A DNA stretch of 64,000 bases, taken from Spirochaetia bacterium. Lineage in GTDB: Bacteria > Spirochaetota > Spirochaetia > SZUA-6 > Bin103. The notes under the pieces were generated by a model, which was given only the letters and a program-made list of their open reading frames with translations, made no database searches and was not told the DNA's origin. The position numbers were made by a program, and so were the translations under genes. The DNA lies in assembly GCA_965203055.1 (NCBI GenBank), contig OZ241863.1, positions 1,120,001 to 1,184,000 of the forward strand. The letters are read 5' to 3'. Below, one piece after another: positions 2,111 to 47,904 of the stretch; the first letter of the stretch is position 1; each line of letters opens with the position of its first letter.

Positions 2111-5100
2111 ATGTCCGACCCCAATAGGAAACGACGTACGTTGAAGCAGTCAACGATAAAGAGACTATACGCCCCTAGTGGGAACCAGTGTGCACACCCA
2201 GGATGTCAGAACCTGTTAATTGCACCAGAAACCGAGCAATCAGATGCTGCTGTTGTCAATAATATCTGCCACATATATGCAAGAAGCGATAGTGGCCCTA
2301 GGAATAACCCGGGCCTTACTGAAGAGCAACGAGATTCCGACGATAACCTGATACTACTTTGCGCGCATCACCACGGGATAGTGGACAAGCAACCGGAGAC
2401 CTACACCGCCGAGACACTCAAGCAATGGAAGCGAGAGCATGAGGCGAAAGTAAAGGACAGAATGTATTCCAATCGCATCCCGGTAGAATTCTTCACAAAG
2501 ATCATCGAAAAGGACATAAATAGACTCAGAAAGAGACTTTCCTTCGGAGATTCCAAGGACATCGAAACGGCACTATCACTCGCCTACCGGTTGACCGAAG
2601 GAAACTACTCGACTGGTCCGGACAGGGTCAGAGTGATCGGACTTGCATGGTGCGTCAGAGTTTTATCGGCCGGAGACAAGTTTGATGACGCCGAGCGATA
2701 CCTCGGCGCTGCCCGGAAAATCGGTTCCTGCGCAGAAATCAAGATCGCCAGTGCCATGACGTTGGCAGGCAAAAGAAACAAAAGAGGTGCGCTTAGCGAG
2801 TTAGGAGATCTCGATACGCCTACATCTCGATCGGCAGCATTCAAGGTGGTCGCCCGTCACGACGGACTGCAGCGAGCCATCGAGTGGCTCGACGCCTCGA
2901 ATATACCGCATGCAAAGCTCGACCACGATGGCAAATTGCTGCTTCTTAGGAGTCAACTTAAACTAGGTCTTTGGAACCAGGCGTTTGCAAGTCTGGATAT
3001 TGTCGACGATAACGATTTACGGGAAGCGCCGGCTCTGCATTTCTTCATCGGGATGACCAATCTGATGAAAGTTGTCCCGCCGGAGCTTCGCAACGTTGTA
3101 CTTCGATATCCGTCTTCTATCGGAGTGCCGCTTGCATCGGATACAATTGCGATGATCAACCTGCGTACCGCTTATTGTCACTTTGTCCGCGCAAGGGACG
3201 CGGCTAAGGACCTTGACTGTCTCGAAGCGTGCTCGACAGCAGAAGAATATTCGCTATGGACTGGTCTCAGACATCCTGACTTGAAGGCGCGTGCGCGACA
3301 CCGGCTCAAGCAGATACGGTGCGAGGACTCGTCGCGTCTTCGCTTTGTGTCGCTCGGTCTTCAGTTTGGACTCGATTTAGATAAACAGGACGTCGAGCGT
3401 AAGATCGAGCAGCAGATTGCCATCAGGGGAGGGCCTACATACGACACTGCCGTGGCGAGGTTTGCGATTGCGACGGCCCAAACGACACCGGGCGCGATAC
3501 TGGATTACCTCTCCAGGTACGGACGCGAACTGACTGATTTCATTGATAATCAGGCACTACGAAAGATCGAGATCGAGATGCTTGCGCGTGCCGGCCGTCC
3601 TCACGAGGCGAAGGAGCGCATGCGCGAGTTGTCGATCGACGGTACTTTGGATGCTGACGTCGATCGGCTCCAGGCGTGTATCGAAGAGTCGAAGGGAGCA
3701 GATCCAGTCGACATACGAAGACATCAGTTCGAACAGACGGATGATCTTATAGACTTAATACAGCTTGTAGACGGTCTCGAGTCAGCCAAGCGGTGGTCTG
3801 ATGTATGTCGCTATGGAAAAATACTTTTCGATAGGACAAAATCGATCGATCACGCGGAACGGCTGGCGCATGGTTTCCACATGACGGCAAGTGACGACCA
3901 CTTGTCTACATTTCTGACGGATAATTTTGAACTGGTCGAGAAGTCGTCGCGACTAAAATTTCTCCGCTGCGTAGCGCTATATTATGAGGGCCGATTTGTT
4001 GAGTCTCTCCAAGATCTGAAGAAGCTTCGTGATGAGTCGGGAGACTCGATTCAAGAGAAATCCTATCGTACACTTCAGATAGAAATCCTGGTCGCCTTAG
4101 GTGATTGGAAAGCTGTTACCGCAATCGTGACGGAGGAATACGGCAGACGAGACGAGCGGAGTGCGGAAGAACTGATGAAGTTGGCCGAGATAGCGTGCGG
4201 TCTATCATTTCCGTACGGTAAGGATATCGTGTTTGCAGCCGTAGAGAAGGGCAGGAGCGATCCGGCTATTCTGATGAGAGGGTTTAATCTGGCGTCGACA
4301 CATGGCTGGGATAATCATGAGGAAGTAGGGAAGTGGTTGCGGGATGCCGCGTCCTTGTCAGATACTGATGGACCGGTTTGGAAGATCTCCCTAAAGGAGG
4401 TCAAGGATCTGAGCAAGTCTTGGAATGGTCGTGTTACAGACGTATCGCGACGATTGTGGTCCGGAGAGGTTCCTATGTTCGTAGCGGCGCAGCTCATGAA
4501 TGCGTCTCTCTGCGGATTGGTCCTCGGGCAAGCGTATGGTAACTATGAAGAACGTGACCCTAGACGGAGATCGACGATCCCTGCCTATAGTGAGAATCGA
4601 CAGCGATCGACCACGACTGGAATCGATGGGACCTCGACAATCGCGGTGGATGGGACTGCGTTATTCACAATGAGCCTGTTGAACATCTTAGACAAATTTA
4701 TCGACTCATTCTCCATGGTCTATATTGCGCATAATACGTTGCCTTGGCTACTACATGAAAAACAGACGTCCATGTTCCATCAACGGCGACTGGTAGAAGA
4801 AGCGCGCGAATTACATCAGTTGCTTGCTACAAACGTATTAGAGATAATGTCGCCGAGTGTGGCGCCGAGTAGCGATCTGCGCGAACAGGTTGGTGGAGAT
4901 CTGGCTCAGATGATAGCGGAGGCAATGAAGTCAAGGAGCGGTGACGAGCCGCGGCCCCTTGTTGTCCGGTCGGCGCCCGTGTATCGACTGTCGTCCCTGA
5001 TGGAAGAAGAAGTCGATTTGATCGAATACTCCGATGTGTTAGTTTCGTGCAGTACGATCGTGAAGGCGCTCCGAACGAGGGGAGTGATCACGGTTACGGA

Positions 5101-8113: not shown

Positions 8114-8169
8114 ATTCGGAATCGATTGGTGATATTTGAGCAGCATGGACAGCATGATTGGTGGCGGGC

Positions 8170-11115: not shown

Positions 11116-11117
11116 CC

Positions 11118-14100
11118 GTGCTCGCCGACTACCCCTGGCAACTCAAGTACACGCCCGATGACGGCGACCTGGTGCGGTTGTTCTACGTGCCGGCGCTGCA
11201 GGAGGCGGAGCGCTACGACCGCCTGACCGGCTACTTCGACGCCGGCGCCCTGGCGCTCGCCGCGCGCGGCGTGGAAGGGTTGGTGCGCAACCGGGGCCGC
11301 ATGCGGCTGGTGGTCGGCTGCACCCTTGGTCCCGACGAAATCGATGCGCTCGACCGGGGTGAGGCGCTCCGCGAACAGGTAGAGCAGCGCCTGCACCGAC
11401 TGCCGCTGGCGCCGCCGGACGCGGCCGCGGCGGGCGCGCTGGAACTGCTGGCCTGGATGGTGGCGCGCGGGCACCTGGAGGTGAAGGCGGCGGTGCCGTG
11501 CGACGCCGAGCGGCGGCCGATCGCCGACGGCGCCCTGTTCCACGAGAAGACCGGCGTGATCGAGGACCGCGGCGGCGACCGCATCGCCTGGACCGGCAGC
11601 CTCAACGAGACCGCGGCCGGCTGGCAGCGCAACTGGGAGAGCATCAACGTCGCCACGAGCTGGGGCCCGGAACCGAAGCGGGTCGCCTGCGAGGAAGACA
11701 ACTTCGCGCGCCTGTGGGCCAACCGCGCGCGCCGCGCCATCGTGCTCGACGTGCCGGAGGCGGCGCGCCGCGACCTGCTGCGGTTCCTGCCGCCCGACGA
11801 CCGCCTGCCGGCGCGGCTGCGGGCGGACAGAGGCGCCGCGCCCGCGCACCCGGCGCACCCGGCAGGGCAGGCGTCGGTCCCGCAGCCGCCGCCCGCGCCC
11901 GGGCCGCCGGCGCACGACCGGCGCGGCCTGGTGTGGGCCTTCATCCGGGAGGCGCCGCGGCGCGCCGCCGGCGGCGAACGGGTGGGGGAGGCCACCGCCG
12001 CAGTGACGCCGTGGCCGCATCAGGTGCGCGCCTTCGAGCGCCTCTACCGGCAGTGGCCGCCGAAGCTGTTGATCGCCGACGAGGTGGGGCTGGGCAAGAC
12101 GATCCAGGCCGGCCTGCTGCTGCGCCAGGCGTGGCTCGCCGGGCGCGCGCGGCGCATCCTGATCCTGGCGCCGCGCGCGGTGCTGCCGCAGTGGCAGTTG
12201 GAGCTGCGCGAGAAGTTCAACCTCAACTGGCCGATCTACGACGGGCGCCGGCTGCTGCGCTATCCCTCGCCGGCGGTGCGCGGGCGCGCGGAGCGGGCGG
12301 TGGAGCCGGACCGCTGGCATGCCGAGCCGGCGGTAATCGCCTCCAGCCAGCTCCTGCGGCGGCGCGGGCGCGCGGCGGCGCTGCTGCAGGCGGAGCCGTG
12401 GGACCTGGTGGTGGTCGACGAGGCGCACCACGCGCGGCGGCGGGCGGCGGGGTCGGCGCGCGAGGGCGGACCGAACGCCCTGCTGCGGCTGCTGCGCCCG
12501 CTCCGCGAGCGGACCGCCGGCCTGGTGCTGCTCACCGCCACGCCGATGCAGGTGCATCCGGTCGAGGTGTGGGACCTGCTGAGCCTGCTGGGCCTGCCGC
12601 CGGAGTGGACGCAGGAGGCGTTTCTGCAGTTCTTCAGGGACGTGGCCGAGCCGAATCCGTCGGCCGCGGCGCTGGACCGCATGGCGCGGCTGTTCCAGGC
12701 GGCCGAACGCGCCTATGGCAGGGCCTCCGCCGAGGAGGTGCGGCGGCTGACCGGGCTGTCGCCGCTGAAGGCCAATCAGGTGCTGCGCGCGCTGCGCGAC
12801 GCGGCCAGCATCCCGCGCCGCCAACTGGAGACCCCGGAGCGCCGTGCGGCGCTGGCCGTGCTGCGGGCGCGCACGCCGCTGCGCCATCTCATCTCGCGCC
12901 ACACCCGCGAGCTGCTGCGCCGCTACTTCCGGGACGGCCTGCTTTCCACCCCGATCGCCGAGCGCCGGGTGGAGGATCGGTTCATCGACCTGAGCGCCGC
13001 CGAGCGGGAACTCTACGAGGCGGTGGAGCGCTACATTGCCACCAGCTACGCGCGGGCGGGCGCTGCCGAACGGTCCGCGGTGGGGTTCGTGATGACCATC
13101 TACCGCCGCCGCCTGGCGAGCAGCTTCCGGGCGTTGCGCGCCACCCTGGAGCGCCACCGCGCCGCGCTCGGCGCCGGCGGCGGGCCGCGGCCGGCCGGCG
13201 CCGCGGAGCTGGAGGAGGACGCGCCCGACGACGCGGCGAGCGAGGAGGCGCTGGACGCCGACGAGGTGGGCGACCGCGAGCGGAGCGCGCTGGCCGCCGC
13301 GCAGCGCGGGGAGATCGAGCTCCTGCTGGCCGCCATCGCGCGCCTGCCGCCGGACGGCAAGCTGGGGCACCTGCGCCGGGTGGTCGCCGGCCTGCGCCGC
13401 GCCGGCTACCGGCAGGCGATGGTGTTCACCCAGTACACCGCGACCATGGAGTTCCTGCGCGACGAGCTGAGCCGGGACGGCGGCCTGCGGCTGCTCTGCT
13501 TCTCCGGGCGCGGCGGCGAGGCGCCGGCCGCCGACGGTACGTGGCGCGCCATCGGCCGCGACGACGCCCGGCGCCGCTTCCGGGACGGAGAGGCGGACCT
13601 GCTGCTCTGCACCGACGCCGCCGCCGAGGGGCTCAACTTCCAGTTCTGCGGCGCGCTGATCAACTACGACATGCCGTGGAATCCGATGCGGGTGGAGCAG
13701 CGCATCGGCCGCATCGACCGCCTGGGGCAGGCGCATCCGGTCATCCGCATCGTCAACCTGCACTACGAGGGCACCGTGGAGACCGACGTCTACCGCGCCC
13801 TGCGCAGTCGCATCGGCTTGTTCGAGAACGTGGTGGGCCGGCTGCAGCCGATCCTGGCGCAGGTGCCGCAGGCGATTTCCGGCGCGGTACTGGCCGGCGG
13901 ACCGAGTGGCGGACCGGGCGCCGGGCCGGCGGAGCGCGGCGCCGCCGCGGTGGAGGCGCTGGAACGGGACGCCGCGGCGGCCGAGGCCGGCGGCTTCGAC
14001 CTGGACGCCGCGCTGGGCGAGGAGCTCACCCTGCCGCCGCGGGAGGCGCCGGCGCTCACGCTGGACGACCTGGAGCGGGTGATCGCCGACCCCGGCCTGC

Positions 14101-14330
14101 TGCCGCCGGGCAACGACGCGCAACCGCTGGGACCGCGCGAGTTCGGCCTGCTCGCGCCCGGCATGGGCGCGCCGGTGCGGGTCACCACCGACCCCGCCTA
14201 CTACGCGGAGAACGCGGAAAGCGTCGAGCTGTGGTCCCCCGGCAACCCGCTGTTCCGCCCGCCCGACTACCTGCCGCCGGCGTCCGCCCTGCCCCCGAAC
14301 GCCGCCCTTCCCGACCTGCTGGACCGCTGA
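11118..14330 (+). CDS. PLD-like nuclease domain fused to SNF2-family helicase
   Basis: FHEKTGVIED...TGSLNET (HxK/GSxN), LIADEVGLGKT, DEAHH, TATP, AAAEGLNFQ, QRIGRIDR. Starts 2 bp after the methylase stop. Confidence 0.9.
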   Translation: MLADYPWQLKYTPDDGDLVRLFYVPALQEAERYDRLTGYFDAGALALAARGVEGLVRNRGRMRLVVGCTLGPDEIDALDRGEALREQVEQRLHRLPLAPPDAAAAGALELLAWMVARGHLEVKAAVPCDAERRPIADGALFHEKTGVIEDRGGDRIAWTGSLNETAAGWQRNWESINVATSWGPEPKRVACEEDNFARLWANRARRAIVLDVPEAARRDLLRFLPPDDRLPARLRADRGAAPAHPAHPAGQASVPQPPPAPGPPAHDRRGLVWAFIREAPRRAAGGERVGEATAAVTPWPHQVRAFERLYRQWPPKLLIADEVGLGKTIQAGLLLRQAWLAGRARRILILAPRAVLPQWQLELREKFNLNWPIYDGRRLLRYPSPAVRGRAERAVEPDRWHAEPAVIASSQLLRRRGRAAALLQAEPWDLVVVDEAHHARRRAAGSAREGGPNALLRLLRPLRERTAGLVLLTATPMQVHPVEVWDLLSLLGLPPEWTQEAFLQFFRDVAEPNPSAAALDRMARLFQAAERAYGRASAEEVRRLTGLSPLKANQVLRALRDAASIPRRQLETPERRAALAVLRARTPLRHLISRHTRELLRRYFRDGLLSTPIAERRVEDRFIDLSAAERELYEAVERYIATSYARAGAAERSAVGFVMTIYRRRLASSFRALRATLERHRAALGAGGGPRPAGAAELEEDAPDDAASEEALDADEVGDRERSALAAAQRGEIELLLAAIARLPPDGKLGHLRRVVAGLRRAGYRQAMVFTQYTATMEFLRDELSRDGGLRLLCFSGRGGEAPAADGTWRAIGRDDARRRFRDGEADLLLCTDAAAEGLNFQFCGALINYDMPWNPMRVEQRIGRIDRLGQAHPVIRIVNLHYEGTVETDVYRALRSRIGLFENVVGRLQPILAQVPQAISGAVLAGGPSGGPGAGPAERGAAAVEALERDAAAAEAGGFDLDAALGEELTLPPREAPALTLDDLERVIADPGLLPPGNDAQPLGPREFGLLAPGMGAPVRVTTDPAYYAENAESVELWSPGNPLFRPPDYLPPASALPPNAALPDLLDR

Positions 14331-14460
14331 ACCGCCCGCCGCCTGCTTGCATGCAACCGTGGTCCGGCAACCGCAACCACCGCCAGCCCGGAGTGAGGTG
14401 GTCCCGGAAAATTGGACAGGAGGTTAAGGTGTATTCCAGGCCATGAGGAGGGCCGATGGG

Positions 14461-14745
14461 ATGGCGACGAAACGACGCCGATTCACAGCACAGTTCAAAG
14501 CCAGGGTGGCGCTGGAGGCGTTCCGCGGGGACCGCACGATCCAGGCGATCGCGGCCAAGCACCAGGTTCATCCGAATCAGGTCAGCGTCTGGAAGCGGCA
14601 AGCCCAGACCGGGCTCGAAGAACTGTTCGCCGCGACCGCCAAGCGCGGCCCCGCCGAGCAGGAGGCGCTCATCCATGACCTCCATGCCAAGATCGGCGAG
14701 TTGACCGTGGAGCGCGATTTTTTAGCGCGCGGGCTCGATCGCTGA
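14461..14745 (+). CDS. IS3 transposase OrfA (HTH)
   Basis: MATKRRRFTAQFKARVALEA...HQVHPNQVSVWKRQ. Confidence 0.9.
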   Translation: MATKRRRFTAQFKARVALEAFRGDRTIQAIAAKHQVHPNQVSVWKRQAQTGLEELFAATAKRGPAEQEALIHDLHAKIGELTVERDFLARGLDR

Positions 14746-14765
14746 GCCCGGAGCAACGACGGCTG

Positions 14766-15600
14766 ATGGTTGACCGCGAGCATTCGAGTCTCAGCTTGAG
14801 TCGGCAGTGCCGGCTGCTCGGCGTATGCCGCTCGGCCCTGTACTACCGACCGCGCGGAGCCAGCGCGGCGACGCTCAGCTTGATGCGCCGCATCGACGAG
14901 TTGTACCTGAAGTACCCGTTCTACGGCAGTCGGCAGCTGGCCCGGCATCTGGCGCGGGAAGGGGTAACGGCGGGGCGCCACCGGGTGCGGCGGCTGATGC
15001 GGCTGCTGGGGTTGGAGGCGATCTACCGCAAGCCGCGCACCACGGTGCCGAACCCGGACCATCAAGTGTATCCGTATCTGTTGAGAGGGCTTACCATTAC
15101 GCGACCGAATCAGGTGTGGTGCGCAGACATCACCTATATCCCGGTGCAGGACGGGTACCTGTACTTGGTGGCGGTGATGGACTGGGCGAGTCGGCGGGTG
15201 CTGGCCTGGGAACTGGCGAATACGCTGGACAGCGAGTTCTGCCTGCTGGCGTTGGCACAGGCGCAGGAGCGCTACGGCAAGCCGGAGGTCTTCAACACCG
15301 ATCAGGGCAGCCAGTTCACCAGCAGGGCGTTCACGGGGCAGTTGGAGGCGGCCGGGATACGCTGCTCGATGAGACGGTCGTGGGCGCTGCCTGGACAACG
15401 TGTTCATCGAGCGGCTGTGGCGGTCGTTGAAGTATGAGGCGGTGTACCTGCACGAGTTGGCGGACGGCTTCGCGGCGCAGCGCGTGATCGCGGAGTGGAT
15501 GGAGTTCTACAACGAGGTACGCCCCCACTCGGCGCTGGACGGGCGGACGCCGGCGGAGGCGTACTGCGGCGTGGCGGCGCCGGCCGGGCAGGTGGCGTAG
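14766..15600 (+). pseudogene. IS3 transposase OrfB (DDE), frameshifted at about 15372
   Basis: WCADITY, NTDQGSQFTS. An extra A in ATGaGACGGT breaks MDGRGRCLDNVFIERLWRSLKYE, which is intact in the second copy at 39.4 kb. Confidence 0.85.
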
Positions 15601-15837
15601 CGAGATGGGGGGTGCAAACTGCAAGCACCGGGAACGGAGCGAGTGGCTGCGCACCGCGGAGCGGGAGTTGTCCACATATCCACAGGGACAGCTACCCCCG
15701 CCCCGGACCCCACCCCCGGTTTACCGCCGCCTGATTTGCAGAGGGAGGGGTAGGTTGACAACCGACGGATACACCTTAACCTACCCCTCGGACTGTCTAA
15801 CCAACCGGGACCACCTCAGCCGACCGCGACCCGCTAA

Positions 15838-18901: not shown

Positions 18902-19976
18902 GGGCACACTTCCAAAATGTAGGTAAGCGTCAGGCCGCTTGGCGGCCAAGCCCAAGTCTCAGTGATCACCGGTCTACCGGCGCCTGACGATCCTCGCCGG
19001 GGCGGCCGCATCCGGCGCCGGCGTGGCGGTAGCGGTGATGGGCGGCGCACAGCAGGCGGAGATTGTTCGGCTCGGCGGCGCCGCCGCAGGCATACGGCAC
19101 GACGTGATCGATCTGCAGCAGGTGTTGGGAGCCGCAACGGCGCCCGCTGGTGCGGTCCACGTAGCGGCAGCGGCCGCGGTCGCGCCGCCAGACCTCGCGC
19201 TTGACCGCCGCCGGGATGGCACGGCCGGTCACGCCGCCGGCCTTCGCTGCCGAAGTTTCGGTCCGCGCCGGCGGCGCGGGCTGCGCCACGCCCGCCGTCG
19301 CAGCCTGCCGGCCGAGGCGCCGCGTCTTCGGCGCCGAAGTGGCGTCGGTCGCCGGCTTCGCTGCCGAAGTGTCCGGGCGGTCAGCGGCTTCCTCTCCCGG
19401 CTCCGCCGCCGCCTGAGCCGATACCTTCGCCGCCGAAGGAGCGGCGCTGTCCGCGCCGCGAGCCGAGGCCGCCTGCGTCTTCGCCGCCGAAGTTTGCTCG
19501 GCTCCTATGGCCGGCGCGGCGCGCCGCCCGCGCGGCGGCCGGGCCGGATCGTGGCGGTCGAGCCCTTCCCGCACCAGCCGCCCCATGAGCTGCCCCATCG
19601 TCATGCGCGGATCGACGTGGGACAGGAGGCCCTGGAGCCGCTCCAAGCCGCGCCGGCACTCATCGTCGATCACCGCCTTGAGCTCCCAGCGCCCGCCGCC
19701 CAGGGGCCGCACCCGATCCGCCGGCGCCAGCTCCGGGTCCACCTCGGCCAGCAACTGCATCACCTGCCGGCTGCTCTTGCCGGACGCCTGCTCCACCAGC
19801 TCCCGCCGCGCCTCCGGGTCCAGCACCGGCGCCGGCGCCGGCTTCCGCTCCGCCGGCCGCGGCGGCGCCGAGCCGTTCTGCGACTGAGCGGCAGCCCCGC
19901 ACCCGGTCCCGCGCGGCGCGCTACGCGCCGCGCGTTCCTTCTTGCGCTCCTGCCGGTCGAACGCATGCTGCAACTC
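18902..19976 (-). mobile_element. 5'-truncated second copy of the HNH-encoding element at 45455-47141
   Basis: Near-identical protein from QHAFDRQERKKE to the C-terminal HNH, plus the shared 3' non-coding end finishing in GAAGTGTGCCC (18912-18902). Confidence 0.85.
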
Positions 19977-19991
19977 TGCGTGCGCCGAATG

Positions 19992-20234
19992 TCAGGGTAT
20001 TATTTTTCTATCTTTCTTTGAATAATAGGAGAGCGGACTACGTTTCTTCGTGTATTTGATGTAATTTTGGTGCCGTGATAAACTAAAACCATAATGGTTT
20101 TTTATTTTTGTTCTTATTTCGCTTCCATCTTTTAGATAAAGAACAATTTCTGGAATACGTTCAGAAGTAGTTTCAATTTTTACTTCTTCCATTGAAAAGA
20201 TAGTTAGAACTGATTCAATTAATTGTTTTGACAT
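19992..20234 (-). other. Very AT-rich foreign fragment with an 80-aa ORF of unknown function
   Basis: About 30% GC by hand count of two lines, against very high GC in the flanks. ORF MSKQLIESVLTIFS... Confidence 0.55.
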
Positions 20235-20249
20235 TTATAAACCCCCAAT

Positions 20250-20525
20250 TCAGATGCAATCGTGCACACGGCGCGTGGTTGCCGACGGCTGCTTCCGCAT
20301 CCACGAGCAGCACTACCAGCTGGTCAGGTGGAGTTCCGGTAACCGCGTTGTGAAAGCGTTCGAATGTCTGCTGACGGCTACCGCACGGGACGAGCTCCAA
20401 CGCAGCGACTTCGCTCTGGCCTGCTGCTTGATCGGGCGGAGAAATGCATCCATGCCTCGTCGTAGCGCAACCAAGGTGTCCCTACCGTCTCCCCCGCCTT
20501 CCAGGTAGATGGTGATGCCGTTCAC
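20250..20525 (-). pseudogene. DUF4276-like (Toprim-fold) partner of the ATPase, frameshifted near 20396 and truncated
   Basis: MNGITIYLEGGGD...LRW then, in another frame, LVPCGSRQQTFERF...VLLVDAE. Its start overlaps the ATPase stop. Confidence 0.75.
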
Positions 20526-21712
20526 GGATTGGCGCCTAGTTCACCCATTCGCCACAGGTCGCCGAGTCGATATTCGTCCAGCCAACTGCTCAGACGCTCG
20601 GGGTCGAGCCGGCGCAGGACGGTGCCCTCGCCGGGACGCTCGCAGGTGAGCACGGCTTCCGGCTGGCCGGTCAGTTCCGAGATCAGCGCATCCGAGTGGG
20701 TGGTCACGATCAGTTGCATGCGCGCGGATGCCTCGACCAGGATCTCGGCGAACAGCGCCACCGCGTCGGGGTGCAGGCCGAGCTCCGGTTCTTCGATGCA
20801 TACCAGCGGCGGCGGAGACGGAGACAGAAGCACCGCCAGAATGGCGATGAAGCGGATCGTGCCATCCGACAGGCGCGTCGCCGGTACCGGCGCGCGAAAG
20901 CCCGTTTCGTGCAGATAGAACTGGACAGTGCCGCCGGAGATGCGGGTCGACATCCGTTCATAGCGAGGAAAGAACCGCGCCAGCAAGTCATCGAATCTGC
21001 GGCCGTCCCGGTGCTCGATCTGATTCAGCACCAATGCCAGGTTGCTTGCGTCGTCGAGCAGTCGGTCTTCGGGGTGATCCGTTCGTTGTGGCTGCCGCAG
21101 CGGCGTATAACGGCCGAACGTCCATTCCCGGAACGTCCGCATGGCGCCGAAACGCTCGCCGAGCCACGTAATCTCGGGATACACGTCGGGATCCTTGCGC
21201 TGCGCCATGACTGACTGATCCGGCAACAGCTTTTCCCGCTGGAGATGCCGAGTATAACCGGGTCCACCGCCGGAGGTATCCTTTACGTTGATGGCGGGTA
21301 GCCCGCGTTGGAAACGATAGTAGAAGTAAACATCGGCCTTTCCGGGTTCAGCGACGGTCTCCTCAATCGCCTCATCCAGCACTTCGACGCGTCCTCCCAC
21401 GGCCGTGAACTCGAGGCGGTAGCGCAGCGGCCGGTGGGTTGGCGTGCCGGTCCCCAACTCGACGTCGATCGTGGCCGCCCGATCCCCTGGTCCTTGTCCC
21501 TTCCACAGCCACTCTTGCGGACCGCCGCCGTCGCGAATCGCGGCCGCCAAGTTGGCAGGAGTCGCGTGGAGCAGCTCCACGGCTTCGATCACGTTCGACT
21601 TGCCCGCTCCGTTGGGGCCGATCAGGACGTTCAGCGGCTCAAGTTCGATGGCCTCCGATCCGGGCGCGAATGACAGGAACGAATCGAGATGGAGTCGTTG
21701 GATGGTCTTCAT
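20522..21712 (-). CDS. ABC/AAA_21-type ATPase (AbiEii-like)
   Basis: LIGPNGAGKSN, LSDGT, IEEPELGLHP, TTHS. Confidence 0.9.
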   Translation of the reverse strand: MKTIQRLHLDSFLSFAPGSEAIELEPLNVLIGPNGAGKSNVIEAVELLHATPANLAAAIRDGGGPQEWLWKGQGPGDRAATIDVELGTGTPTHRPLRYRLEFTAVGGRVEVLDEAIEETVAEPGKADVYFYYRFQRGLPAINVKDTSGGGPGYTRHLQREKLLPDQSVMAQRKDPDVYPEITWLGERFGAMRTFREWTFGRYTPLRQPQRTDHPEDRLLDDASNLALVLNQIEHRDGRRFDDLLARFFPRYERMSTRISGGTVQFYLHETGFRAPVPATRLSDGTIRFIAILAVLLSPSPPPLVCIEEPELGLHPDAVALFAEILVEASARMQLIVTTHSDALISELTGQPEAVLTCERPGEGTVLRRLDPERLSSWLDEYRLGDLWRMGELGANP

Positions 21713-21726
21713 GGCAGCCGCGCGGA

Positions 21727-22443
21727 TTAGTCGGCGTCGTCTACGGCGACGATGCAGGGGAGATGGCGCAGCGCGCCGGCGGCGTCGAGGCCGTAGCCCG
21801 CTACCCACACGTCGGGGATGCGGAACCCGACCAGATCGGGGGCCGCCTTGGCGCGCTGGGCAAGGGTGCGGGCCGGGGGATCGGTGAGCTGCTTGTCCAG
21901 CAACACACACACCTGCACGCTGCGCACCCCCCAGCGGGCCATGCGGTCGCGCAGCGCGGCGAGCGTGAAGCCGTGATCGAGGATGTCGTCCACCAGCAGC
22001 ATGGCGCGGCCGACCACGTCGGCCGGCTGCAGGTCGATCTGCACCCGCCGCTGCGCGCCGCCGGCGCCGAGCGCCGCGCCGTAGGTGCTGGTCTTGGCGA
22101 ACTCGTAGCGCACGTCGATGGTGCTGGCCGCGGCGAGCGCGCGGCCCAGGTCGGCCGCGAACATGAACGCGCCGGTGAGCACCGGGGTGATGACCAGCTC
22201 GCTGCCGCGCGGGTGATGATCGGCCAGCTCCGCGGCCAACTCGGTGACCCGCCGCTGCAGCACCTGCTCGGGGATCAGCACCCGCGGCGGCCGCGCCTGC
22301 AGCGCCGGCGGCAGGGCGATGCCATGTTGCCGCGGACTGGCGGCCGCGGGGTCGATTCCCGCCGCCGGGACCACGACCGGAGCGGCCGCGGGGACGGTGG
22401 GGGCCGCCGGGGCAGCGGGATGAACGTGCTGGTTCACCTTCAT
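21727..22443 (-). CDS. hpt: Hypoxanthine phosphoribosyltransferase
   Basis: VLTGAFMFAADL, LLVDDILDHGFTL, VCVLLDK, WVAGYGLD. ATGA overlap with leuB. Confidence 0.85.
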   Translation of the reverse strand: MKVNQHVHPAAPAAPTVPAAAPVVVPAAGIDPAAASPRQHGIALPPALQARPPRVLIPEQVLQRRVTELAAELADHHPRGSELVITPVLTGAFMFAADLGRALAAASTIDVRYEFAKTSTYGAALGAGGAQRRVQIDLQPADVVGRAMLLVDDILDHGFTLAALRDRMARWGVRSVQVCVLLDKQLTDPPARTLAQRAKAAPDLVGFRIPDVWVAGYGLDAAGALRHLPCIVAVDDAD

Positions 22444-32738: not shown

Positions 32739-32828
32739 GGCTGGCGCCAAGGTAGCGGCTCAGCGCGCGAATAACAAGGCAACCGCGCCGTTCGATCGAT
32801 CATGCTATGCTTGGGCCGGGCACCACGC

Positions 32829-33899
32829 ATGCCGCGCGACCTGTACCAGCCGCATGATCGTCTGTTTCGCAAGGTGTTTTCCGAGCCGGCGGAAGCGGCC
32901 GGCTTGCTGCGCGCCTATGTGCCTTCGTGGCTCGTCGATACGCTGGACTGGTCCAGCTTGACGCTGATGCCCGACAGCTACGTGGACGACGAGCTGCGGG
33001 CCAGCGAGTCCGACCTGCTGTTCGCGGTCGAGTGGCGCCCGGGCGCTGCGGAGCCGGGAGACTTGCGGCGTTCGTTGCGGCTCTACCTGCTGTTCGAGCA
33101 CCAATCGAGTCCGGACCGGTTGATGCGCTTCCGGCTGCTGAAGTACTGCTGCGGCATCTGGGACGATTTCTTGCGCTCCGCCGAAGCGAAGGAGACGCCG
33201 GACTTGCCGCCGATCGTGCCGCTGGTGTTCTATCAGGGTGAGTCGCGCTGGCACCATACGACGGAGTTCAGCGAGTTGTTTGCGGAACCGGCCAGGCGGT
33301 GGCCCTGGACGCCGCAGTTCGAGCACCTGCTGGTGGACCAGTCGCAGGCGGACGTGGGAGCGGTACCGGGCGAAACGCTGGGCCGGGCAGCGCAGCTTGC
33401 GCTGATGGCGGCGGCGCGCCGCGAGCTGCGGGAGGCGCTGGCGCGGGAGGCGCTGGCGCGGACGGTGCGGCTCATGGGAGAGTTGGACCGGGCGGGACAG
33501 GGCGAACGGTTCCGGGCGGTGGTGTTTTACGTGCTCCATACCCAGGATAAGGAGACGTTGCGGGAGTTCTTCGCGGCGCTGCGGCGCGAGGTACGAGGAC
33601 CAGGAGGGGATATGATGACGTATGCAGAGGAGCTGATCCGGGAAGGCCGTCAGGAGGGCGAGCTGAAAGGCCGGCAAGAAGGCGAGCTGAAAGGCCGGCA
33701 GGAGGGCCGGGTGGAAGGCCGGGTGGAAGGCCGAGAGGAGGGCCGAGTAGAAGGCCGGCAGGAAGGCCAAGTAGCCACGATCGAGAGTTTTCTGCGCGCC
33801 GGCGTCGGGTGGCCGATCATCGAGCAGGCGACCGGCATCGACCAGGAGGCATTCGAGTTGCTCCGCCGCCGGAACTACGCGTCAGATCGGGAGTCCTGA
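32829..33899 (+). CDS. Rpn/YhgA-like PD-(D/E)XK nuclease with EGRQ-type repeat tail
   Basis: PHDRLFRKVF, SDLLF, LLFEHQS, PIVPLVFYQG. Repeats EGRQEGELK/EGRVEG at about 33642-33768. Confidence 0.92.
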   Translation: MPRDLYQPHDRLFRKVFSEPAEAAGLLRAYVPSWLVDTLDWSSLTLMPDSYVDDELRASESDLLFAVEWRPGAAEPGDLRRSLRLYLLFEHQSSPDRLMRFRLLKYCCGIWDDFLRSAEAKETPDLPPIVPLVFYQGESRWHHTTEFSELFAEPARRWPWTPQFEHLLVDQSQADVGAVPGETLGRAAQLALMAAARRELREALAREALARTVRLMGELDRAGQGERFRAVVFYVLHTQDKETLREFFAALRREVRGPGGDMMTYAEELIREGRQEGELKGRQEGELKGRQEGRVEGRVEGREEGRVEGRQEGQVATIESFLRAGVGWPIIEQATGIDQEAFELLRRRNYASDRES

Positions 33900-38469: not shown

Positions 38470-39199
38470 CTCCGCCAGCGACCCGCGAAATATGCTGTGT
38501 ACCGGCAGATCATCCGCAGTACGGCACTACCGGCAGCCATTCCTCCTCCACCTGCGGCCATCGCCGCGCCTAGCTCATAGGTCTTGTTCATTACCTAACC
38601 TCCCTCCTGTGCGATGCGGCGACCTCCGGGACGACCTCACGGCGCAGTTGGTACGACAGAAGGTAAGGTAACATGTCCATCCGCCGGTGACAAACAACAC
38701 AAGGCAACGACAACGCTACGGCGGCGGAGCCCGAGGAACAGGCCCCGGATGGTGTTGGGCGGCGCAATTGGGATGGTCGGCAGCGCTGCGGTGGGGGGGG
38801 GGGGGGCGGAATCCGAGCGGCGCCGGAAGCACCGGCAGCCACGGGGCGGCCAGCGAGCGCAGCGCTACCAGCGCCGCGTTGCTGGCGAGCCGCTGGCGGC
38901 AGGAGGTCAGTTCGGGGCGGCAGCCGGCGAGATGCTGCGGTAGAAGCCGATCACCACCCGCAGCACCTGCCGGACTAGGTGCACGCGGCGGCGCAGCCAG
39001 CGCATGGCGCGCCGGGCAGTTCGATGCCGTCACGGCGCACTTGGTCGGCGGCCTGCATCAGACTCGCCGCCTGTTCGGCGTGCGCGTCCACCGCTTCCAG
39101 GCCCTGGAGCGTCCCCGGCAGCCGCGCCAGGCAGTCGATCCGTCAACGGATCAATCTGATCAGATAGGCCGGTTGGGAAACGCTAACGTGTTCTGATTC

Positions 39200-39726
39200 T
39201 GAGGTGGTCCCGGAAATTGGACAAGGAGGTTAAGGTGTATTCCAGGCCATGAGGAGGGCCGATGGGATGGCGACGAGACGGCGCCGATTCACAGCACAGT
39301 TCAAAGCCACGGCGAGCCGGAGGTCTTCAAACACCGATCAGGGCAGCCAGTTCACCAGCAGGGCGTTCACGGGGCAGTTGGAGGCGGCCGGGATACGCTG
39401 CTTGATGGACGGTCGTGGGCGCTGCCTGGACAACGTGTTCATCGAGCGGCTGTGGCGGTCGTTGAAGTATGAGGCGGTGTACCTGCACGAGTTGGCGGAC
39501 GGCTTCGCGGCGCAGCGCGTGATCGCGGAGTGGATGGAGTTCTACAACGAGGTACGCCCCCCACTCGGCGCTGGACGGGCGGACGCCAGCGGAGGCGTAC
39601 TGCGGCGTGGCGGCGCCGGCCGGGCAGGTGGCGTAGCGAGATGGGAAGGGGTGCAAACTGCAAGCACCGGGAACGGAGCGAGTGGCTGCGCACCGCGGAG
39701 CGGGAGTTGTCCACATATCCACAGGG
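39200..39726 (+). mobile_element. Deleted copy of the IS3 element at 14394 (left end kept, large internal deletion, right end lost)
   Basis: TGAGGTGGTCCCGG at 39200. The orfA start joins directly to the orfB GCCGGAGGTCTTCAA region. Identity ends after CCACATATCCACAGGG. Confidence 0.9.
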
Positions 39727-40758: not shown

Positions 40759-41820
40759 TCAGGTGGATCTGCGGCCTATCAATGCCTCGAGTTCGGCCAC
40801 CCGCGCTTCGGCCGCTTGGCGAGCGGCCGCTTCCTGTTGGACGCGGGTTTCTACGGCTTGGCGAGCGGCCGCTTCCTGTTGGACGCGGGTTTCTGCGGCT
40901 TGGCGAGCGGCCGCTTCCTGTTGGACGCGGGTTTCTGCGGCCTGGCGAGCGGCTGCTTCCTGTTGGACGCGGGTTTCTGCGGCTTGGCGAGCGGCCGCTT
41001 CCTGCTCTGCGCGCTGCTGTTGCTGCTCTGCGCGCTGCTTGCCGGTGGGGATCAACTCGCCGTGCGCGTCCGTCCAGCGCAGCCACCGGCTGCGCACGCC
41101 CTCGAACTCCCCCTCCCACAGCGTCATCCCCAGCCCCAGCTCCGGGAACCAGGGCCGCCCTCCCTGGCGTTCGTATGTCCCGGCGCTCAACCGAAAGACG
41201 CGCAGCTCATCGCGCATCACCTGCCGCAACGGATCGGAGACCACGTAGTAGCCAATCCCCATCCGGGCGTACCTCTTCCGCTTATCCCCAATCTCATTGC
41301 CCTTCTGGTTGGACACGATTTCCACCACCAGGTCCGGCACTTTGCCGAACTCCCACACCAAGTAGGAGCGGTGTTCCTTGTCCCACCAGTTCTCGTGCAC
41401 CTGCACGTCCAGACTGAGGAACACGTCGGGCACGATCGCCGGATTGCGCGGTGCGGGGAACACGCCCACGTTGGCGGCGGCCAGAAACGGGCGCCCGCCG
41501 CCGGGGCCGGCCCAGGAAGTGTACAGCGGCTCGGTGAGCAGGCGTTGCTGCTTCTCGGAGGGCAGGTTGTCCACCGGCGTATCATCCTCGGTCACCAGGG
41601 ATTCGATGTCGCTGTCGAGCGCCGGCACGGACCGCGTAGCGGCGTTGCGCGCGGCCCGGACCGGGGCGGCCGGCGGCGCGTTCGCCAGCGGCCGCGCGGG
41701 CCGGGGCGCCGGAGACCGGTCGGGCCTGCGAACCACGTCCGGCGCCGGCCGCGCCGTGACGGGTTCGGCGGCGCGCGCGTCAGGCGCGGAACGACCGGTC
41801 GGGAATGACGGCGAGTCCAT
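40759..41820 (-). CDS. Uma2/DUF820 PD-(D/E)XK endonuclease with 14-aa C-terminal tandem repeats
   Basis: TEDDTPVDN, VPDVFL, PDLVVEIVS. (QQEAAARQAAETRV)n encoded by 42-bp units at about 40810-41005. Confidence 0.9.
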   Translation of the reverse strand: MDSPSFPTGRSAPDARAAEPVTARPAPDVVRRPDRSPAPRPARPLANAPPAAPVRAARNAATRSVPALDSDIESLVTEDDTPVDNLPSEKQQRLLTEPLYTSWAGPGGGRPFLAAANVGVFPAPRNPAIVPDVFLSLDVQVHENWWDKEHRSYLVWEFGKVPDLVVEIVSNQKGNEIGDKRKRYARMGIGYYVVSDPLRQVMRDELRVFRLSAGTYERQGGRPWFPELGLGMTLWEGEFEGVRSRWLRWTDAHGELIPTGKQRAEQQQQRAEQEAAARQAAETRVQQEAAARQAAETRVQQEAAARQAAETRVQQEAAARQAVETRVQQEAAARQAAEARVAELEALIGRRST

Positions 41821-41911
41821 AGGGCAGACTATACCGTACCGGCGCCGCGGCCGAAAGCGCTTGACGATCGGATACACGACATGCCGTTGCGCCGGACCGT
41901 GGTACGCGCCC

Positions 41912-44746: not shown

Positions 44747-45376
44747 TCACGCTCCGGCGGTCGGGGCGTCAAAGCATGCCGCCACGCCGGCGGCCAGGCC
44801 GGGGAGCAGCGGCGACCGCGCCGTTGCGCCGCGTCCGTACACCCCGTGCTCGACGTACGCGCCGTCCTGCAGCGTGAGCACGACGATCGTCGCAGCGCGC
44901 GGATCGGCGATCCAGTACTCGGCGATGCCCGCCTCCGCGTAGTCCGCCCGTTTCTCCACCAAGTCCCGAGCGGGATCGTCCGGGCTGACCACCTCCGCTA
45001 CCAGGTCCGCCCCTAGCCAGTAGGGATTCCGGCAGCGCGGATCCGTGCGACTCCGCAGTAGCAGAAGATCGGGCTCGCGGAACTTGCCCGCGCGGATGCG
45101 CATGCGCAACGGGGCGACCATCACGACCCCGCCGCGCGGCTGCAGGTAGCCGTGGAACAGGCCGTAGAGGAACAGAAGCACGGCCTGGTGCCCGAAGGTG
45201 GGCATCGGCAATTCCTGTACGTGGCCGTCGGTGAACTCGATCAGACGATTGCTGTGGTCGGTGAGCCACAGGTAGGCAGCCTCGCTCCAGGCGCCTTGCG
45301 GCGGCAGGACGTCGCGCAACAGCGCGTTCAGCGCCTCCTGGGAGGTCGGCGCTGCCGGCACAGATTCGGTGGTCAC
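44747..45376 (-). CDS. Uma2/DUF820 endonuclease
   Basis: IEFTDG, FREPDL, ADLVAEVVS, KRADYAEAGIAEYWIADP. Confidence 0.9.
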   Translation of the reverse strand: MTTESVPAAPTSQEALNALLRDVLPPQGAWSEAAYLWLTDHSNRLIEFTDGHVQELPMPTFGHQAVLLFLYGLFHGYLQPRGGVVMVAPLRMRIRAGKFREPDLLLLRSRTDPRCRNPYWLGADLVAEVVSPDDPARDLVEKRADYAEAGIAEYWIADPRAATIVVLTLQDGAYVEHGVYGRGATARSPLLPGLAAGVAACFDAPTAGA

Positions 45377-45658
45377 GGTTGACGTTTCCTGCCCCCTCTC
45401 AACTGCCAACTTACCGCAAACCCCGGACCGCGTTCAAACGGCGGCCCACCGTTCGGGCGCACTTCGTTAGTACCGATCCCGCCCTCGAAGCCGCCGGAAG
45501 GCGTACTACGAGTACCGCGCCGCGCCGGGGCCGTGAGAAGAAACCCTGCCGCTCGACGCCGGCGACATTCTCGGCAGTAGCATCTGACGGAACGTCTATC
45601 CGCTTGGAAATGCGCCGCCTAGTCACGCCCGCAGGTGGCATCTCTCGGGCCGAATAAC

Positions 45659-45687
45659 TTGACTCAAGTAGTTCCCATGATTATACT
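45659..45687 (+). promoter_or_regulatory. Sigma70-type promoter for a leaderless HNH transcript
   Basis: TTGACT-N17-TATACT, with ATG 6 nt downstream and no SD. Confidence 0.8.
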
Positions 45688-45693
45688 TATGTC

Positions 45694-47043
45694 ATGAGCA
45701 AACATGCTTCTGACGGTGCCATCACGACTACCGTTTCCGCCCTTTCAGACGACCGCTTGCTGGCGCGGACCAAGGAACTTTCCGGCATCGAACACCATCT
45801 CGAAGTGGTCGTCATCGACCACCTGCGCGAGATTCAGAAGCGCCGCCTGTATCTGCGCCTTGGCTTTTCGAGCCTGTTCGACTACGCGGTGCGCGAACTG
45901 GGTTACAGCGACGCCGCAGCGTGGCGGCGCATCAAGGCGATGCGGCTCTGCGCGGACGTCGACGGCGTGCGCGAGCGCCTGCAGAATGGCGAGATGACGC
46001 TGAACGCGGCCGCGCAGTTGCAGCATGCGTTCGACCGGCAGGAGCGCAAGAAGGAACGCGCGGCGCGCAGCGCGCCGGGCGGGGCCGGGTTCGGGGCTGC
46101 CGCCCAGTCGCAGAACGGCTCGGCGCCGCCGCGGCCGGCGGAGCGGAAGCCGGCGGCGGTGCTGGACCCGGAGGCGCGGCGGGAGCTGGTGGAGCAGGCG
46201 TCCGGCAAGAGCAGCCGGGAGGTGACGCAGTTGCTGGCCGAGATGGACCCGGAGCTGGCGGCGCCGGCGGAGCGGGTGCGGCCGCTGGGCGGCGGGCGCT
46301 GGGAACTCAAGGCGGTGATCGACGATGAGTGCCGGCGGGGCTTGGAGCGGCTCAAGGGCCTCCTGTCTCACGTCGATCCGCACATGACGATGGGGCAGCT
46401 CATGGAGCGGCTGGTGCGGGAAGGGCTCGACCGCCACGACCCGGCCCGGCCGCCGCGCGGGCGGCGCGCCGCGCCGGCCAAAGGCGCCGAGCAAACTTCG
46501 GCGCCGAAGACGCAGGCAGCCTCGGCTCGCGGCGCTGCCTCGGCAGCGAAGCAGGAGGCCGGCGCGGACAGCGCCGCTCCTTCGGCGGCGAAGGTATCGG
46601 TTCAGGCGGCGGCCCAGCTGGAAGACGAAGCCGCTGACCGCTCGGACACTTCGGCAGCGAAGCCGGCGACCGACACCACTTCGGCGCCGAAGACGCGGCG
46701 CCTCGGCCGGCCGGCTGCGGCGTGCGCGCAGCCGGCTGCGCCGCTGCGGACCCGGACTTCGGCAGCGAAGCCGGGCGTGAGCGGCCGCGCGATCCCGGCG
46801 GCGGTCAAGCGCGAGGTGTGGCGGCGCGACCGGGGCCGCTGCCGCTACGTGGACCGCGCCAGCGGGCGCCGCTGCGGCTCGCAACACCTGCTGCAGATCG
46901 ATCACGTCGTGCCGTATGCCTGCGGCGGCGCCGCCGAGCCGAACAATCTCCGGCTGCTGTGCGCCGCCCATCACCGCTACCGCCATGCCGGCGCCGGATT
47001 CGGCCGCCCCGGCGAGGATCGTCAGGTGCCGGTAGACCGGTAA
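45694..47043 (+). CDS. HNH endonuclease with DUF222-like helical N-terminus
   Basis: LYLRLGFSSLFDYAVRELGYS. C-terminal RAIPAAVKREVWRRDRGRC...LQIDHVVP..GG...NNLRLLCAAHH. Confidence 0.9.
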   Translation: MSKHASDGAITTTVSALSDDRLLARTKELSGIEHHLEVVVIDHLREIQKRRLYLRLGFSSLFDYAVRELGYSDAAAWRRIKAMRLCADVDGVRERLQNGEMTLNAAAQLQHAFDRQERKKERAARSAPGGAGFGAAAQSQNGSAPPRPAERKPAAVLDPEARRELVEQASGKSSREVTQLLAEMDPELAAPAERVRPLGGGRWELKAVIDDECRRGLERLKGLLSHVDPHMTMGQLMERLVREGLDRHDPARPPRGRRAAPAKGAEQTSAPKTQAASARGAASAAKQEAGADSAAPSAAKVSVQAAAQLEDEAADRSDTSAAKPATDTTSAPKTRRLGRPAAACAQPAAPLRTRTSAAKPGVSGRAIPAAVKREVWRRDRGRCRYVDRASGRRCGSQHLLQIDHVVPYACGGAAEPNNLRLLCAAHHRYRHAGAGFGRPGEDRQVPVDR

Positions 47044-47330
47044 TCAAGATCGCCGAGAAACGTCCTCTTGTACTGGGGACTGGGGACTTGGGCTTAGCCG
47101 CCAAGCGGCCCGACGCTCACCTGCATTTTGGAAGTGCGCCCCCACCCGTCGGGCGAGCGGAGGGCGGCGGACCCGATACACCGAACCGGCGGTAGCGCCT
47201 CGGCAGGACCTCCAACCGCCGCCCGCGGCCGCTCCTGTACGTACTCGGCGCGTCTTGTGTGGTAGATCGGTCTGACGGAATACGGCATATCGCCATAGCT
47301 GCCATTGAAATCCTTGCTGCGCGCCGGAGG

Positions 47331-47615
47331 TCATAGGGTCTGCGCCTCTTGCAGCACGCGGTCTAGGAGGTCGGGATGGAGGCTCTTTTCGGTTACTACT
47401 TCCACCCGGCGGTGCAGGAGATCTTGCACGTCCATGAGCAGGCCGCCGAGAGCGAGGCCCGTTTTCTCGGGCGGAAGCGTCACCAGCAGGTCGACGTCGC
47501 TGCCATCGCCGGCATCTCCCCTTGCCATGGACCCGAACACGCGTACCTCGCGGATGCCGTGGCGCTTGGCGATGGCGAGAATCCGCGTACGGTGTCGGTC
47601 GATCACGGGGTGCAT
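47331..47615 (-). CDS. Minimal nucleotidyltransferase (MNT) antitoxin-type protein
   Basis: VRVFGSMARGD...SDVDLLV. Confidence 0.88.
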   Translation of the reverse strand: MHPVIDRHRTRILAIAKRHGIREVRVFGSMARGDAGDGSDVDLLVTLPPEKTGLALGGLLMDVQDLLHRRVEVVTEKSLHPDLLDRVLQEAQTL

Positions 47616-47904
47616 TTGATCTCTGGCGAGGGTACCGGGAAGCCGGCACGCGGCTCAACCGCGACCTTGCAGGTACGTGGTCACGATCGCGGCTTCTCAG
47701 CGGGGTAGCGGGTGGTGGGTCAGCGGCCGGGGCTGGCGGCCCGGCCGCGGCCGTATTCGTTGGCGGGGTTGCGGTAGATCGAGTGGTAATGGCCGCCGGC
47801 GGCGGCGAGGGCGCCGGCCAGCGAACGAATCGAGCGCGTCATATGCCGATTGCGCACGAAACGACCGGTGCGGGACGGCTGCGGTTCGCGCTACAGTACG
47901 CGGG

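Follow-up and report, generated by a model that had tools for sequence, protein, structure and literature searches.

Can a gene for an HNH endonuclease spread through a bacterial chromosome when no recombinase is encoded within it or beside it? The question is raised by a locus of a Spirochaetia bacterium that lies in a stretch of 64,000 nucleotides (contig OZ241863.1, positions 1,120,001 to 1,184,000; hereafter the window) with an average GC content of 67%. An earlier note on this DNA had described the gene as a transposase-less unit with inverted ends, present twice in the window, which would be either a carrier resembling a miniature inverted-repeat transposable element (MITE) and mobilized in trans, or an element akin to the REP13E12 repeats. 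To our knowledge, nobody knows how or whether the REP13E12 repeats of Mycobacterium tuberculosis move. We name the intact window copy W1, the second, 5'-truncated copy W2, and a 13-nt core sequence that recurs in these cassettes, TTGGAARTGCGCC, S. With about even confidence, we read W1 as one intact copy from a family of selfish HNH cassettes that are scattered in many copies, resemble REP13E12, and spread by break-induced recombination; this family would be non-actinobacterial and distantly related to the DUF222-HNH genes of REP13E12 in mycobacteria. Such a cassette fits the data better than a transposon, MITEs included, because there is no transposase, no regular target duplication and no young copy, and because many copies are one-ended or truncated, with mosaic ends and rearrangements through short repeats or paralogous flanks.

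Copy number and the shared unit

The gene belongs to a large family of paralogues. A protein search gave 1,787 matches at E ≤ 1e-3 among 8,000 candidates scored, and among the best 120 of these matches at least 12 paralogue clusters, the window protein included, lie on the window's own contig of 4,557,819 bp. The 11 paralogues fetched from this contig all fall in one subfamily (A) and are 82-91% identical to the window protein. A scan of contigs with peptide patterns gave 24 related loci (numbered L001 onward). Of these, 15 full copies and 3 fragments come from the related genome OZ241907.1 (4.13 Mb), and the others, more distant, from four other records; 3 further fragments adjoin full copies (L003 5760-6236, L004 3014-3197, and L010 3018-3218). 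The family is thus multicopy, as the earlier note had supposed. The 5' end is missing in all seven fragments, W2 counted. In OZ241907.1, the reading frame is unbroken from the ATG to the end of the HNH motif in 10 of the 15 full copies; the other 5 are frameshifted. The L004 and L010 fragments are pieces of the HNH linker region; each precedes a full copy of like orientation by 120-190 bp, as would be expected after nested insertion or unequal recombination within the linker repeats.

The copies are all diverged from one another. DNA identity is 93-96% within subfamily A (W1, W2, L001, L002, L012, and L014), 90-94% within subfamily B (11 copies of OZ241907.1), and 87-91% between the two, and no pair among the window and OZ241907.1 copies exceeds 96%. 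In the protein tree, the split between A and B is supported at 100/100, and A holds 12 proteins of the window's genome and 2 of OZ241907.1; the two genomes have therefore expanded different subfamilies. A tblastn search of plasmid and phage collections gave no match to the HNH family.

The stretch over which every full copy can be aligned to W1 runs only from about 45650 to about 47033, which comprises the promoter and the open reading frame (ORF). The promoter that the earlier note had assigned to the gene was recovered (see Table 1). Fifteen of the 16 full copies retain both of its hexamers and the distance of 6 nt from the −10 hexamer to the ATG, with a spacer of variable sequence; L011 has a degenerate version. 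Since the −10 hexamer ends 6 nt before the ATG, the transcript of the HNH gene would be leaderless.

The second copy in the window is less complete than had been thought. Positions 46016-47141 align to 19975-18902 with 87.6% identity, and the alignment confirms that W2 shares the 3' end of W1 and that similarity stops at 18902. W2 has neither promoter nor left end and begins at about codon 108. Hence, the inverted-ended unit occurs once in the window and not twice, because W2 is a 5'-truncated fragment. Its nearest relative is L001 (94.3% over 1083 bp). Exactly at the truncation point lies a 250-bp AT-rich block (19990-20250; GC 0.30-0.36), which holds an 80-aa ORF (19992-20234, minus strand) with a third-position GC of 0.21 and no Pfam match; this block looks like foreign filler DNA.

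Could these copies simply be an ordinary, immobile paralogous family, born of old segmental duplications, in which the inverted repeat and the recurrences of S reflect shared ancestry and a GC-rich composition? The 4-13% divergence of the copies would suit such a history, as would the absence of regular target duplications, the lack of matches in plasmid and phage collections, and an inverted repeat that by itself is at chance level (see below). However, nearly all copies cease to resemble one another within tens of bases of the gene, next to unrelated neighbors, and the promoter travels with the gene. Two related genomes differ sharply in how many copies they carry and from which subfamily, the HNH genes resemble each other far more than do the paralogues that adjoin them, a third of the copies are decaying, and the triple occurrence of S described below is matched by just 1 of 2,000 shuffles. 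We consider this explanation quite unlikely.

The comparison of L001, L012, and L021 illustrates how the HNH genes differ from their surroundings. Each of the three lies next to a paralogue of one gene, which consists of tandem repeats of 114-120 bp, and the relative orientations differ (L012 is inverted). Between L001 and L012 the HNH genes are 95% identical, versus about 75% for the neighboring paralogues, which implies either a later arrival of the cassette or its homogenization through flanking homology. In L001 the cassette (about 2889-4389) lies between two diverged 51-nt copies of a piece of the tandem-repeat gene's upstream region (score of 32 versus a cross-locus maximum of 15), and in L021 two small HNH fragments flank the tandem-repeat gene (1188-1217 and 3001-3136).

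Ends of the cassette and the S motif

The perfect 11-bp inverted repeat around the HNH gene, which the earlier note had described, is indeed present: the 11-mer GGGCGCACTTC stands at 45455-45465 and its exact reverse complement at 47131-47141. Taken alone, this repeat is at chance level. At one mismatch or fewer, GGGCGCACTTC occurs 4 times in the window (3.14 expected). Flanks of this size share a perfect 11-nt inverted match in 11.9% of 5,000 random placements in the window and in 2.6% of 5,000 composition shuffles. The W1 pair is not among the 25 longest of the 69 inverted pairs in 45300-47300, and its score is equalled by 27% of 306 cross-locus pairs of upstream and downstream regions. The 9-mers directly outside the repeats, CCACCGTTC (45446-45454) and CCACCCGTC (47142-47150), agree at 7 of 9 positions as the earlier note had seen, an agreement found between random pairs of window 9-mers with P = 0.0037.

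Comparison between copies reveals discrete ends, exclusively in the six copies of subfamily A. The earlier note would have put the repeat down to chance if other full copies lacked the left boundary at GGGCGCACTTC, but two of them share it: W1, L002, and L014 all start there with unrelated DNA outside; the W1 terminus lacks 6 nt (CAAATT) that follow the repeat in L014. The right end is common to W1, W2, L001, and L012 and absent from L002 and L014. It comprises a 3' block of about 55 nt ending in ...TTTTGGAA[GA]TG[CT]GCCC, and in all four copies similarity is lost within 2 nt after ...GCGCCC, the outer flanks being unrelated. The 5' similarity of L001 and L012 starts only at about 45593. Both termini occur together in W1 only, i.e., in one of the six subfamily-A copies, and neither is found in any of the 11 subfamily-B copies, groups of which share other short 5' and 3' blocks. 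The termini form an imperfect inverted repeat of about 24 nt (GGGCGCAYTTCCAAAWTGTWGRTA), with 20 of 24 positions alike between the left end of L014 and the right end of W2, and the A/T run behind the first 11 nt measures 0, 5, 5, 6, 6, 6, and 7 nt in the seven termini.

Sharp termini with shared boundaries beside unrelated flanks, alike at 20 of 24 positions across copies, are features of a non-autonomous element with terminal inverted repeats. The HNH gene could then be the cargo of a MITE-like unit, or an HNH cassette could have homed into a dispersed MITE (arms 45455-45650 and 47086-47141); in both versions a transposase encoded elsewhere would cut and paste the ends. The third, subterminal copy of the core resembles the repeated transposase-binding sites of some transposons, the 7/9 match outside the two ends could be added to this, and ends and gene are separable because subfamily-B copies lack the ends. 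Yet other observations speak against such an element. Just one of the six subfamily-A copies has both ends, the inverted-repeat score of W1 is at chance level, and no copies are more than 96% identical. A flanking direct repeat is absent from 15 of the 16 full copies (the exception is the diverged 51-nt pair of L001), and in subfamily B no flank repeat, direct or inverted, rises above the cross-locus controls. In the window and the 24 loci (about 247 kb) we found no copy of either arm without the HNH gene and no cognate transposase with the same ends (GGGCGCAYTTCCAAA), and the 16-nt terminus occurs in the window only at its two known places. The only insertion sequence (IS) seen in the window, a member of the IS3 family, has ends (TGAGGTGGTCCCGG.../...CCGGGACCACCTCA) that differ from the cassette termini, for which reason it was rejected as their source; no IS with the same inverted repeat was found there or in the loci. 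The MITE-like carrier of the earlier note is therefore poorly matched by these copies, and we regard it as unlikely.

The S motif recurs beyond expectation. At two mismatches or fewer, 183 kb of loci contain 13 hits, compared with 3.0 in shuffles (maximum 8), and 10 of the 13 fall at three homologous positions, namely S1' (inverted, at the left terminus), S2 (upstream of the ATG), and S3 (at the right terminus). In 440 nt of non-coding DNA (the 5' region of L014 plus the 3' region of W1) there are three copies of one 13-mer with at most one mismatch, as in 1 of 2,000 shuffles, with the caveat that under an inversion scenario the S3 of W1 and the S1' of L014 could be one ancestral site. The S3 of L001 is independent and by inspection gives the same triple count. 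The earlier note had proposed that the non-coding ends could be cis sites or RNAs. The thrice-repeated motif speaks for cis sites. The RNA reading was abandoned: Rfam yields nothing at E ≤ 1 between 45300 and 47700, shuffled sequences fold as well as the 5' region does (z-score of −0.2), and none of the 14 predicted pairs of the 3' block covaries. We also discarded an integron-cassette reading, given core sites that by eye are unlike the GTTRRRY pattern, and a retro-copying reading suggested by the 5'-truncated fragments, given that the promoter, which lies upstream of the predicted transcript start, is retained and that there is no reverse transcriptase.

The orientation of the cassette can differ with respect to the same flank. 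L014 1944-2117 matches window 47815-47636 (89.5%) and L014 2515-2676 matches window 47276-47124 (79%). Within the match lies the final part of a DUF3500 gene, complete in L014 and cut down to its last 95 bp or so in the window (47720-47815). In L014 the shared flank leads through GGGGCGCACTTCCAAATTG into the cassette's 5' region, and in the window it is joined by GGGGCGCACTTCCAAAATG to the 3' block, read as its reverse complement. Relative to this homologous flank the two cassettes thus point in opposite directions, and the junction falls within the repeat (GGGGCGCACTTCCAAAWTG). An inversion between two inverted copies of S would explain this arrangement, or else a deletion with S3 at one end and the S1' of a convergent copy at the other. 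On its other side, L014 has a PhyH-like flank that is unrelated to the Uma2 side of W1.

This switch raises the possibility that S is the target of a host site-specific recombinase of the invertase or Xer type and that the cassette can be inverted or exchanged as a module, in the manner of the pdif modules of Acinetobacter plasmids. W1 is bracketed by inverted sites, both orientations exist against a homologous flank with the junction within the site, and the variable A/T stretch after the 11-nt arm might be a crossover region. Still, inspection of the seven termini reveals no dyad symmetry between site halves, most copies carry a single terminal site, and no recombinase gene is adjacent. We regard this explanation, too, as unlikely. 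The pdif modules (XerC/D) are likewise transposase-less and bracketed by short inverted sites in either orientation, but the cassette sites have no recognizable two-arm symmetry, are chromosomal, and mostly occur once per copy.

The HNH protein, its relatives, and a proposed mechanism of spread

Judged from its sequence, the protein encoded by W1 has an intact HNH motif. The Pfam HNH match (aa 393-431) scores 28 bits against a cut-off of 21.4, and H404, G411/G412, and H426 are nearly invariant in an alignment of 48 sequences. An AlphaFold (AF2) model built from 48 sequences (mean pLDDT, the predicted local distance difference test score, of 78) opens with a helical N-domain at aa 13-126, which is followed by a mixed domain (159-248); a disordered linker of residues 260-365 or so then leads to the HNH domain (366-435). 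Ratios of nonsynonymous to synonymous substitution rates (dN/dS) are 0.21 in the N-domain, 0.64 in the middle, 0.86 in the linker, and 0.73 in the HNH domain, in a set that includes the frameshifted L002 and L010 and ragged C-termini; we take only the low value of the N-domain, as a rough sign of constraint. The linker is not conserved in distant relatives, and its repeats could reflect selection either on DNA hairpins (CTTCGGCNNCGAAG) or on the TSA[AP]K peptide. A fold search of the PDB retrieved HNH domains only, and no match at E ≤ 0.001; ParB-like rows were disregarded (probability of 0.25-0.38). The PDB sequence search gave weak HNH matches only. As the earlier note had observed, the unit encodes no recombinase (Pfam, NCBIfam, and PADLOC give HNH only), and no recombinase domain lies beside it either. 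A reading of the HNH protein as a defense system was set aside, given that it has no PADLOC match.

The link with REP13E12, also put forward in the earlier note, rests on architecture and on relatives of the protein. Among 30 distant full-length relatives, one passes the DUF222 threshold (P0263, 27.2 versus 24.4 bits) and four match below the cut-off, all five in their N-terminal part. PF02720 is present in 3 of the 120 listed relatives of P0263, which carry the NCBI name "HNH endonuclease (signature motif containing protein)." A features search of the Atlas led to a "DUF222 domain-containing" cluster (score of 0.94), 12% of whose members have PF02720. The window protein thus has a helical N-terminus bordering on DUF222. 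Repeats of the DUF222/HNH kind, such as REP13E12, are common: a HMMER search of 1.84 billion representatives gave 17,085 clusters at E ≤ 1e-3, 7,400 at 1e-10, and 911 at 1e-30.

REP13E12/HNH/DUF222 has been listed among the repetitive elements of M. tuberculosis (PMC10589994), and REP13E12 regions have been described as hotspots of gene conversion "lacking defined biological function" (PMC13061034), with mention of a prophage attachment site of the phiRv1 type (PMC13061034). Titles and abstract openings of the literature searched name no mobility mechanism for DUF222-HNH genes or REP13E12. The W1 family resembles REP13E12 in several ways: both are dispersed repeats of about 1.4 kb that center on a single gene, whose product is helical in its N-terminal region and carries an HNH motif at its C-terminus, both occur in several copies per genome without a recombinase, and frequent recombination between REP13E12 copies is reported (PMC10589994 and PMC13061034). 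The two also differ. DUF222 is reached by relatives and not by the window protein, the host is a member of the Spirochaetia with a GC-rich genome, and more copies are present. In the window family the promoter is set against the ATG, the linker consists of TSA[AP]K repeats, and the ends carry the S motif. Hence, the kind of element is already known, with its mechanism unexplained, and the W1 family is a new variation on REP13E12.

Other known systems resemble the cassette in part. Free-standing HNH homing genes (phage mob genes and the I-Hmu type) have their own expression signals and no transposase, and by spreading through breaks and their repair they would leave partial copies and co-converted flanks of variable extent; normally they have one cognate site per genome, whereas here a dozen or more unrelated sites are occupied. 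Among the sequences compared, no empty site, i.e., a homologous locus without the cassette, was present. Like MITEs, the cassette has short terminal inverted repeats, no internal transposase, and a possible 9-bp duplication in one copy; in contrast to MITEs, it carries a 1.35-kb gene that is probably expressed, has both ends in one copy, and is without near-identical copies or regular duplications. IscB/HEARO (OMEGA) systems share the HNH domain, and the window protein has a weak match to the NCBIfam model guided_IscB in its HNH part only (22.6 bits versus a cut-off of 175), but there is no RuvC domain and no Rfam RNA.

We suggest the following mechanism for the preferred, REP13E12-like reading. 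The nuclease would make breaks, possibly at or near S, and host recombination and repair would then copy the cassette into sites with short or paralogous homology, in a form of ectopic gene conversion that resembles homing. Recombination between copies of S could invert or trim the cassette, and no transposase would be needed. Such a process would account for one-ended copies, mosaic ends, 5'-truncated fragments, and the lack of regular target duplications.

Several observations weigh against this interpretation. In residues 1-249 of the window protein Pfam finds no domain at all, DUF222 included, even at E ≤ 10. That S is the target of the nuclease is pure inference, as no cleavage site or activity is known. 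Boundaries that fall on the same nucleotide beside unrelated flanks are predicted by a transpositional or site-specific mechanism with defined ends, and not by variable conversion tracts, and the 7/9 match outside W1 looks like a decayed 9-bp target duplication. The copies differ by at least 4%, and recent movement is undocumented. The predominance of 3' fragments may be due in part to the peptide patterns with which the loci were found. Finally, the homology of flanks between W1 and L014 could be a transferred block and not strict orthology, because in the protein tree W1 pairs with P0008 (80/84) and not with L014.

A bolder possibility, which we find improbable, is a new class of transposase-less elements in which the DUF222-like HNH protein itself serves as the enzyme of mobility. 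This protein would recognize the 13-24-nt S sequence at both ends and at −90 and cut at these places, after which the cassette would be copied, inverted, or excised by host repair. If this were true, it would be the first mechanism for the REP13E12-type repeats of thousands of bacterial genomes. Copies in this lineage are numerous and diverged, their promoter is easily recognized, one subfamily has discrete ends, and there are both a candidate cis site and a switch of orientation. These features make the question testable, by asking whether the nuclease cuts S and whether cassettes bounded by S move or flip. Should the answer be no, what is left is a well-described family of selfish paralogues.

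Features and neighbors of the HNH cassette

Table 1. Coordinates of the cassette's parts, of the second window copy, and of the gene family adjoining three related loci (window positions unless a locus is named)
Feature	Position	Strand	Remarks
Left terminal repeat S1' (inverted copy of the S core)	45455..45465	+	Same boundary in L002 (2789) and L014 (2659); outside DNA differs
5' non-coding region of subfamily A	45455..45658	+	Entire in L002 and L014; from ~45593 only in L001 and L012
S2, internal direct copy of the 13-nt core, TTGGAAATGCGCC	45604..45616	+	90 nt upstream of the ATG; position kept in 5/5 subfamily-A copies with the 5' region
Promoter, sigma-70-like, TTGACT-17-TATACT	45659..45687	+	1 site versus 0.1 expected
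HNH endonuclease gene, 449 aa	45694..47043	+	Sole Pfam domain HNH, aa 393-431
Linker DNA repeats, 5-6 copies of ACTTCGGCNNCGAAG	46495..46774	+	Near-palindromes coding TSA[AP]K; from a repeat-pair search
Proximal 3' tail, TCAAGATCGCCGAGAAACGTCC	47044..47065	+	Common to L002 and L014; not in W2, L001, or L012
3' block with S3 (47128-47140) and right terminal repeat (47131-47141)	47086..47141	+	Common to W2, L001, and L012
Right flank "B"	47142..47330	.	Homologous to the left flank of L014
Copy 2 (W2), codons ~108-449, 3' block, and right terminus	18902..19975	-	5'-truncated fragment
Tandem-repeat gene family	L001 806-2880; L012 4489-6136; L021 1217-2900		No Pfam match

The IS3-family element of the window (about 14393-15822) has an ORF with HTH_Tnp_1 (14443-14745) and one with rve (14766-15437). 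Fragments of this element lie at 39194-39639, and a related copy is found just upstream of the HNH cassette in L009 (1300-2508). Next to the AT-rich block at W2, an AAA_21 ATPase (20522-21910, minus strand) has a match to HEC-01A, a candidate defense protein of PADLOC (E = 7e-156). It is followed by a small gene (20313-20525) that is frameshifted and cut by this block; its remaining 70-aa piece has no Pfam match, and we take its product, by eye from the translation, to be a DUF4276-like partner.

Two YhgA-like (Transposase_31) and two Uma2-family genes occupy 629-1792, 32802-33899, 40759-41877, and 44747-45409 of the 64 kb. The Uma2-family genes are putative restriction endonucleases (PADLOC PDC-S03), and one of them directly adjoins the left end of the cassette. 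At 8158-14330, a DUF1156 methyltransferase (985 aa) precedes a PLD-SNF2 helicase (1070 aa); PADLOC matches the pair to helicase and methylase models of the Hma/DISARM/BREX type, and it is likely a defense module. On the right side of the cassette, the minus strand of 47331-47615 encodes an MNT-type nucleotidyltransferase (PADLOC PDC-S09) that is followed by no recognizable HEPN partner. At the corresponding place L014 has an unrelated 119-aa ORF, and this spot, with the DUF3500 remnant, is a variable islet.

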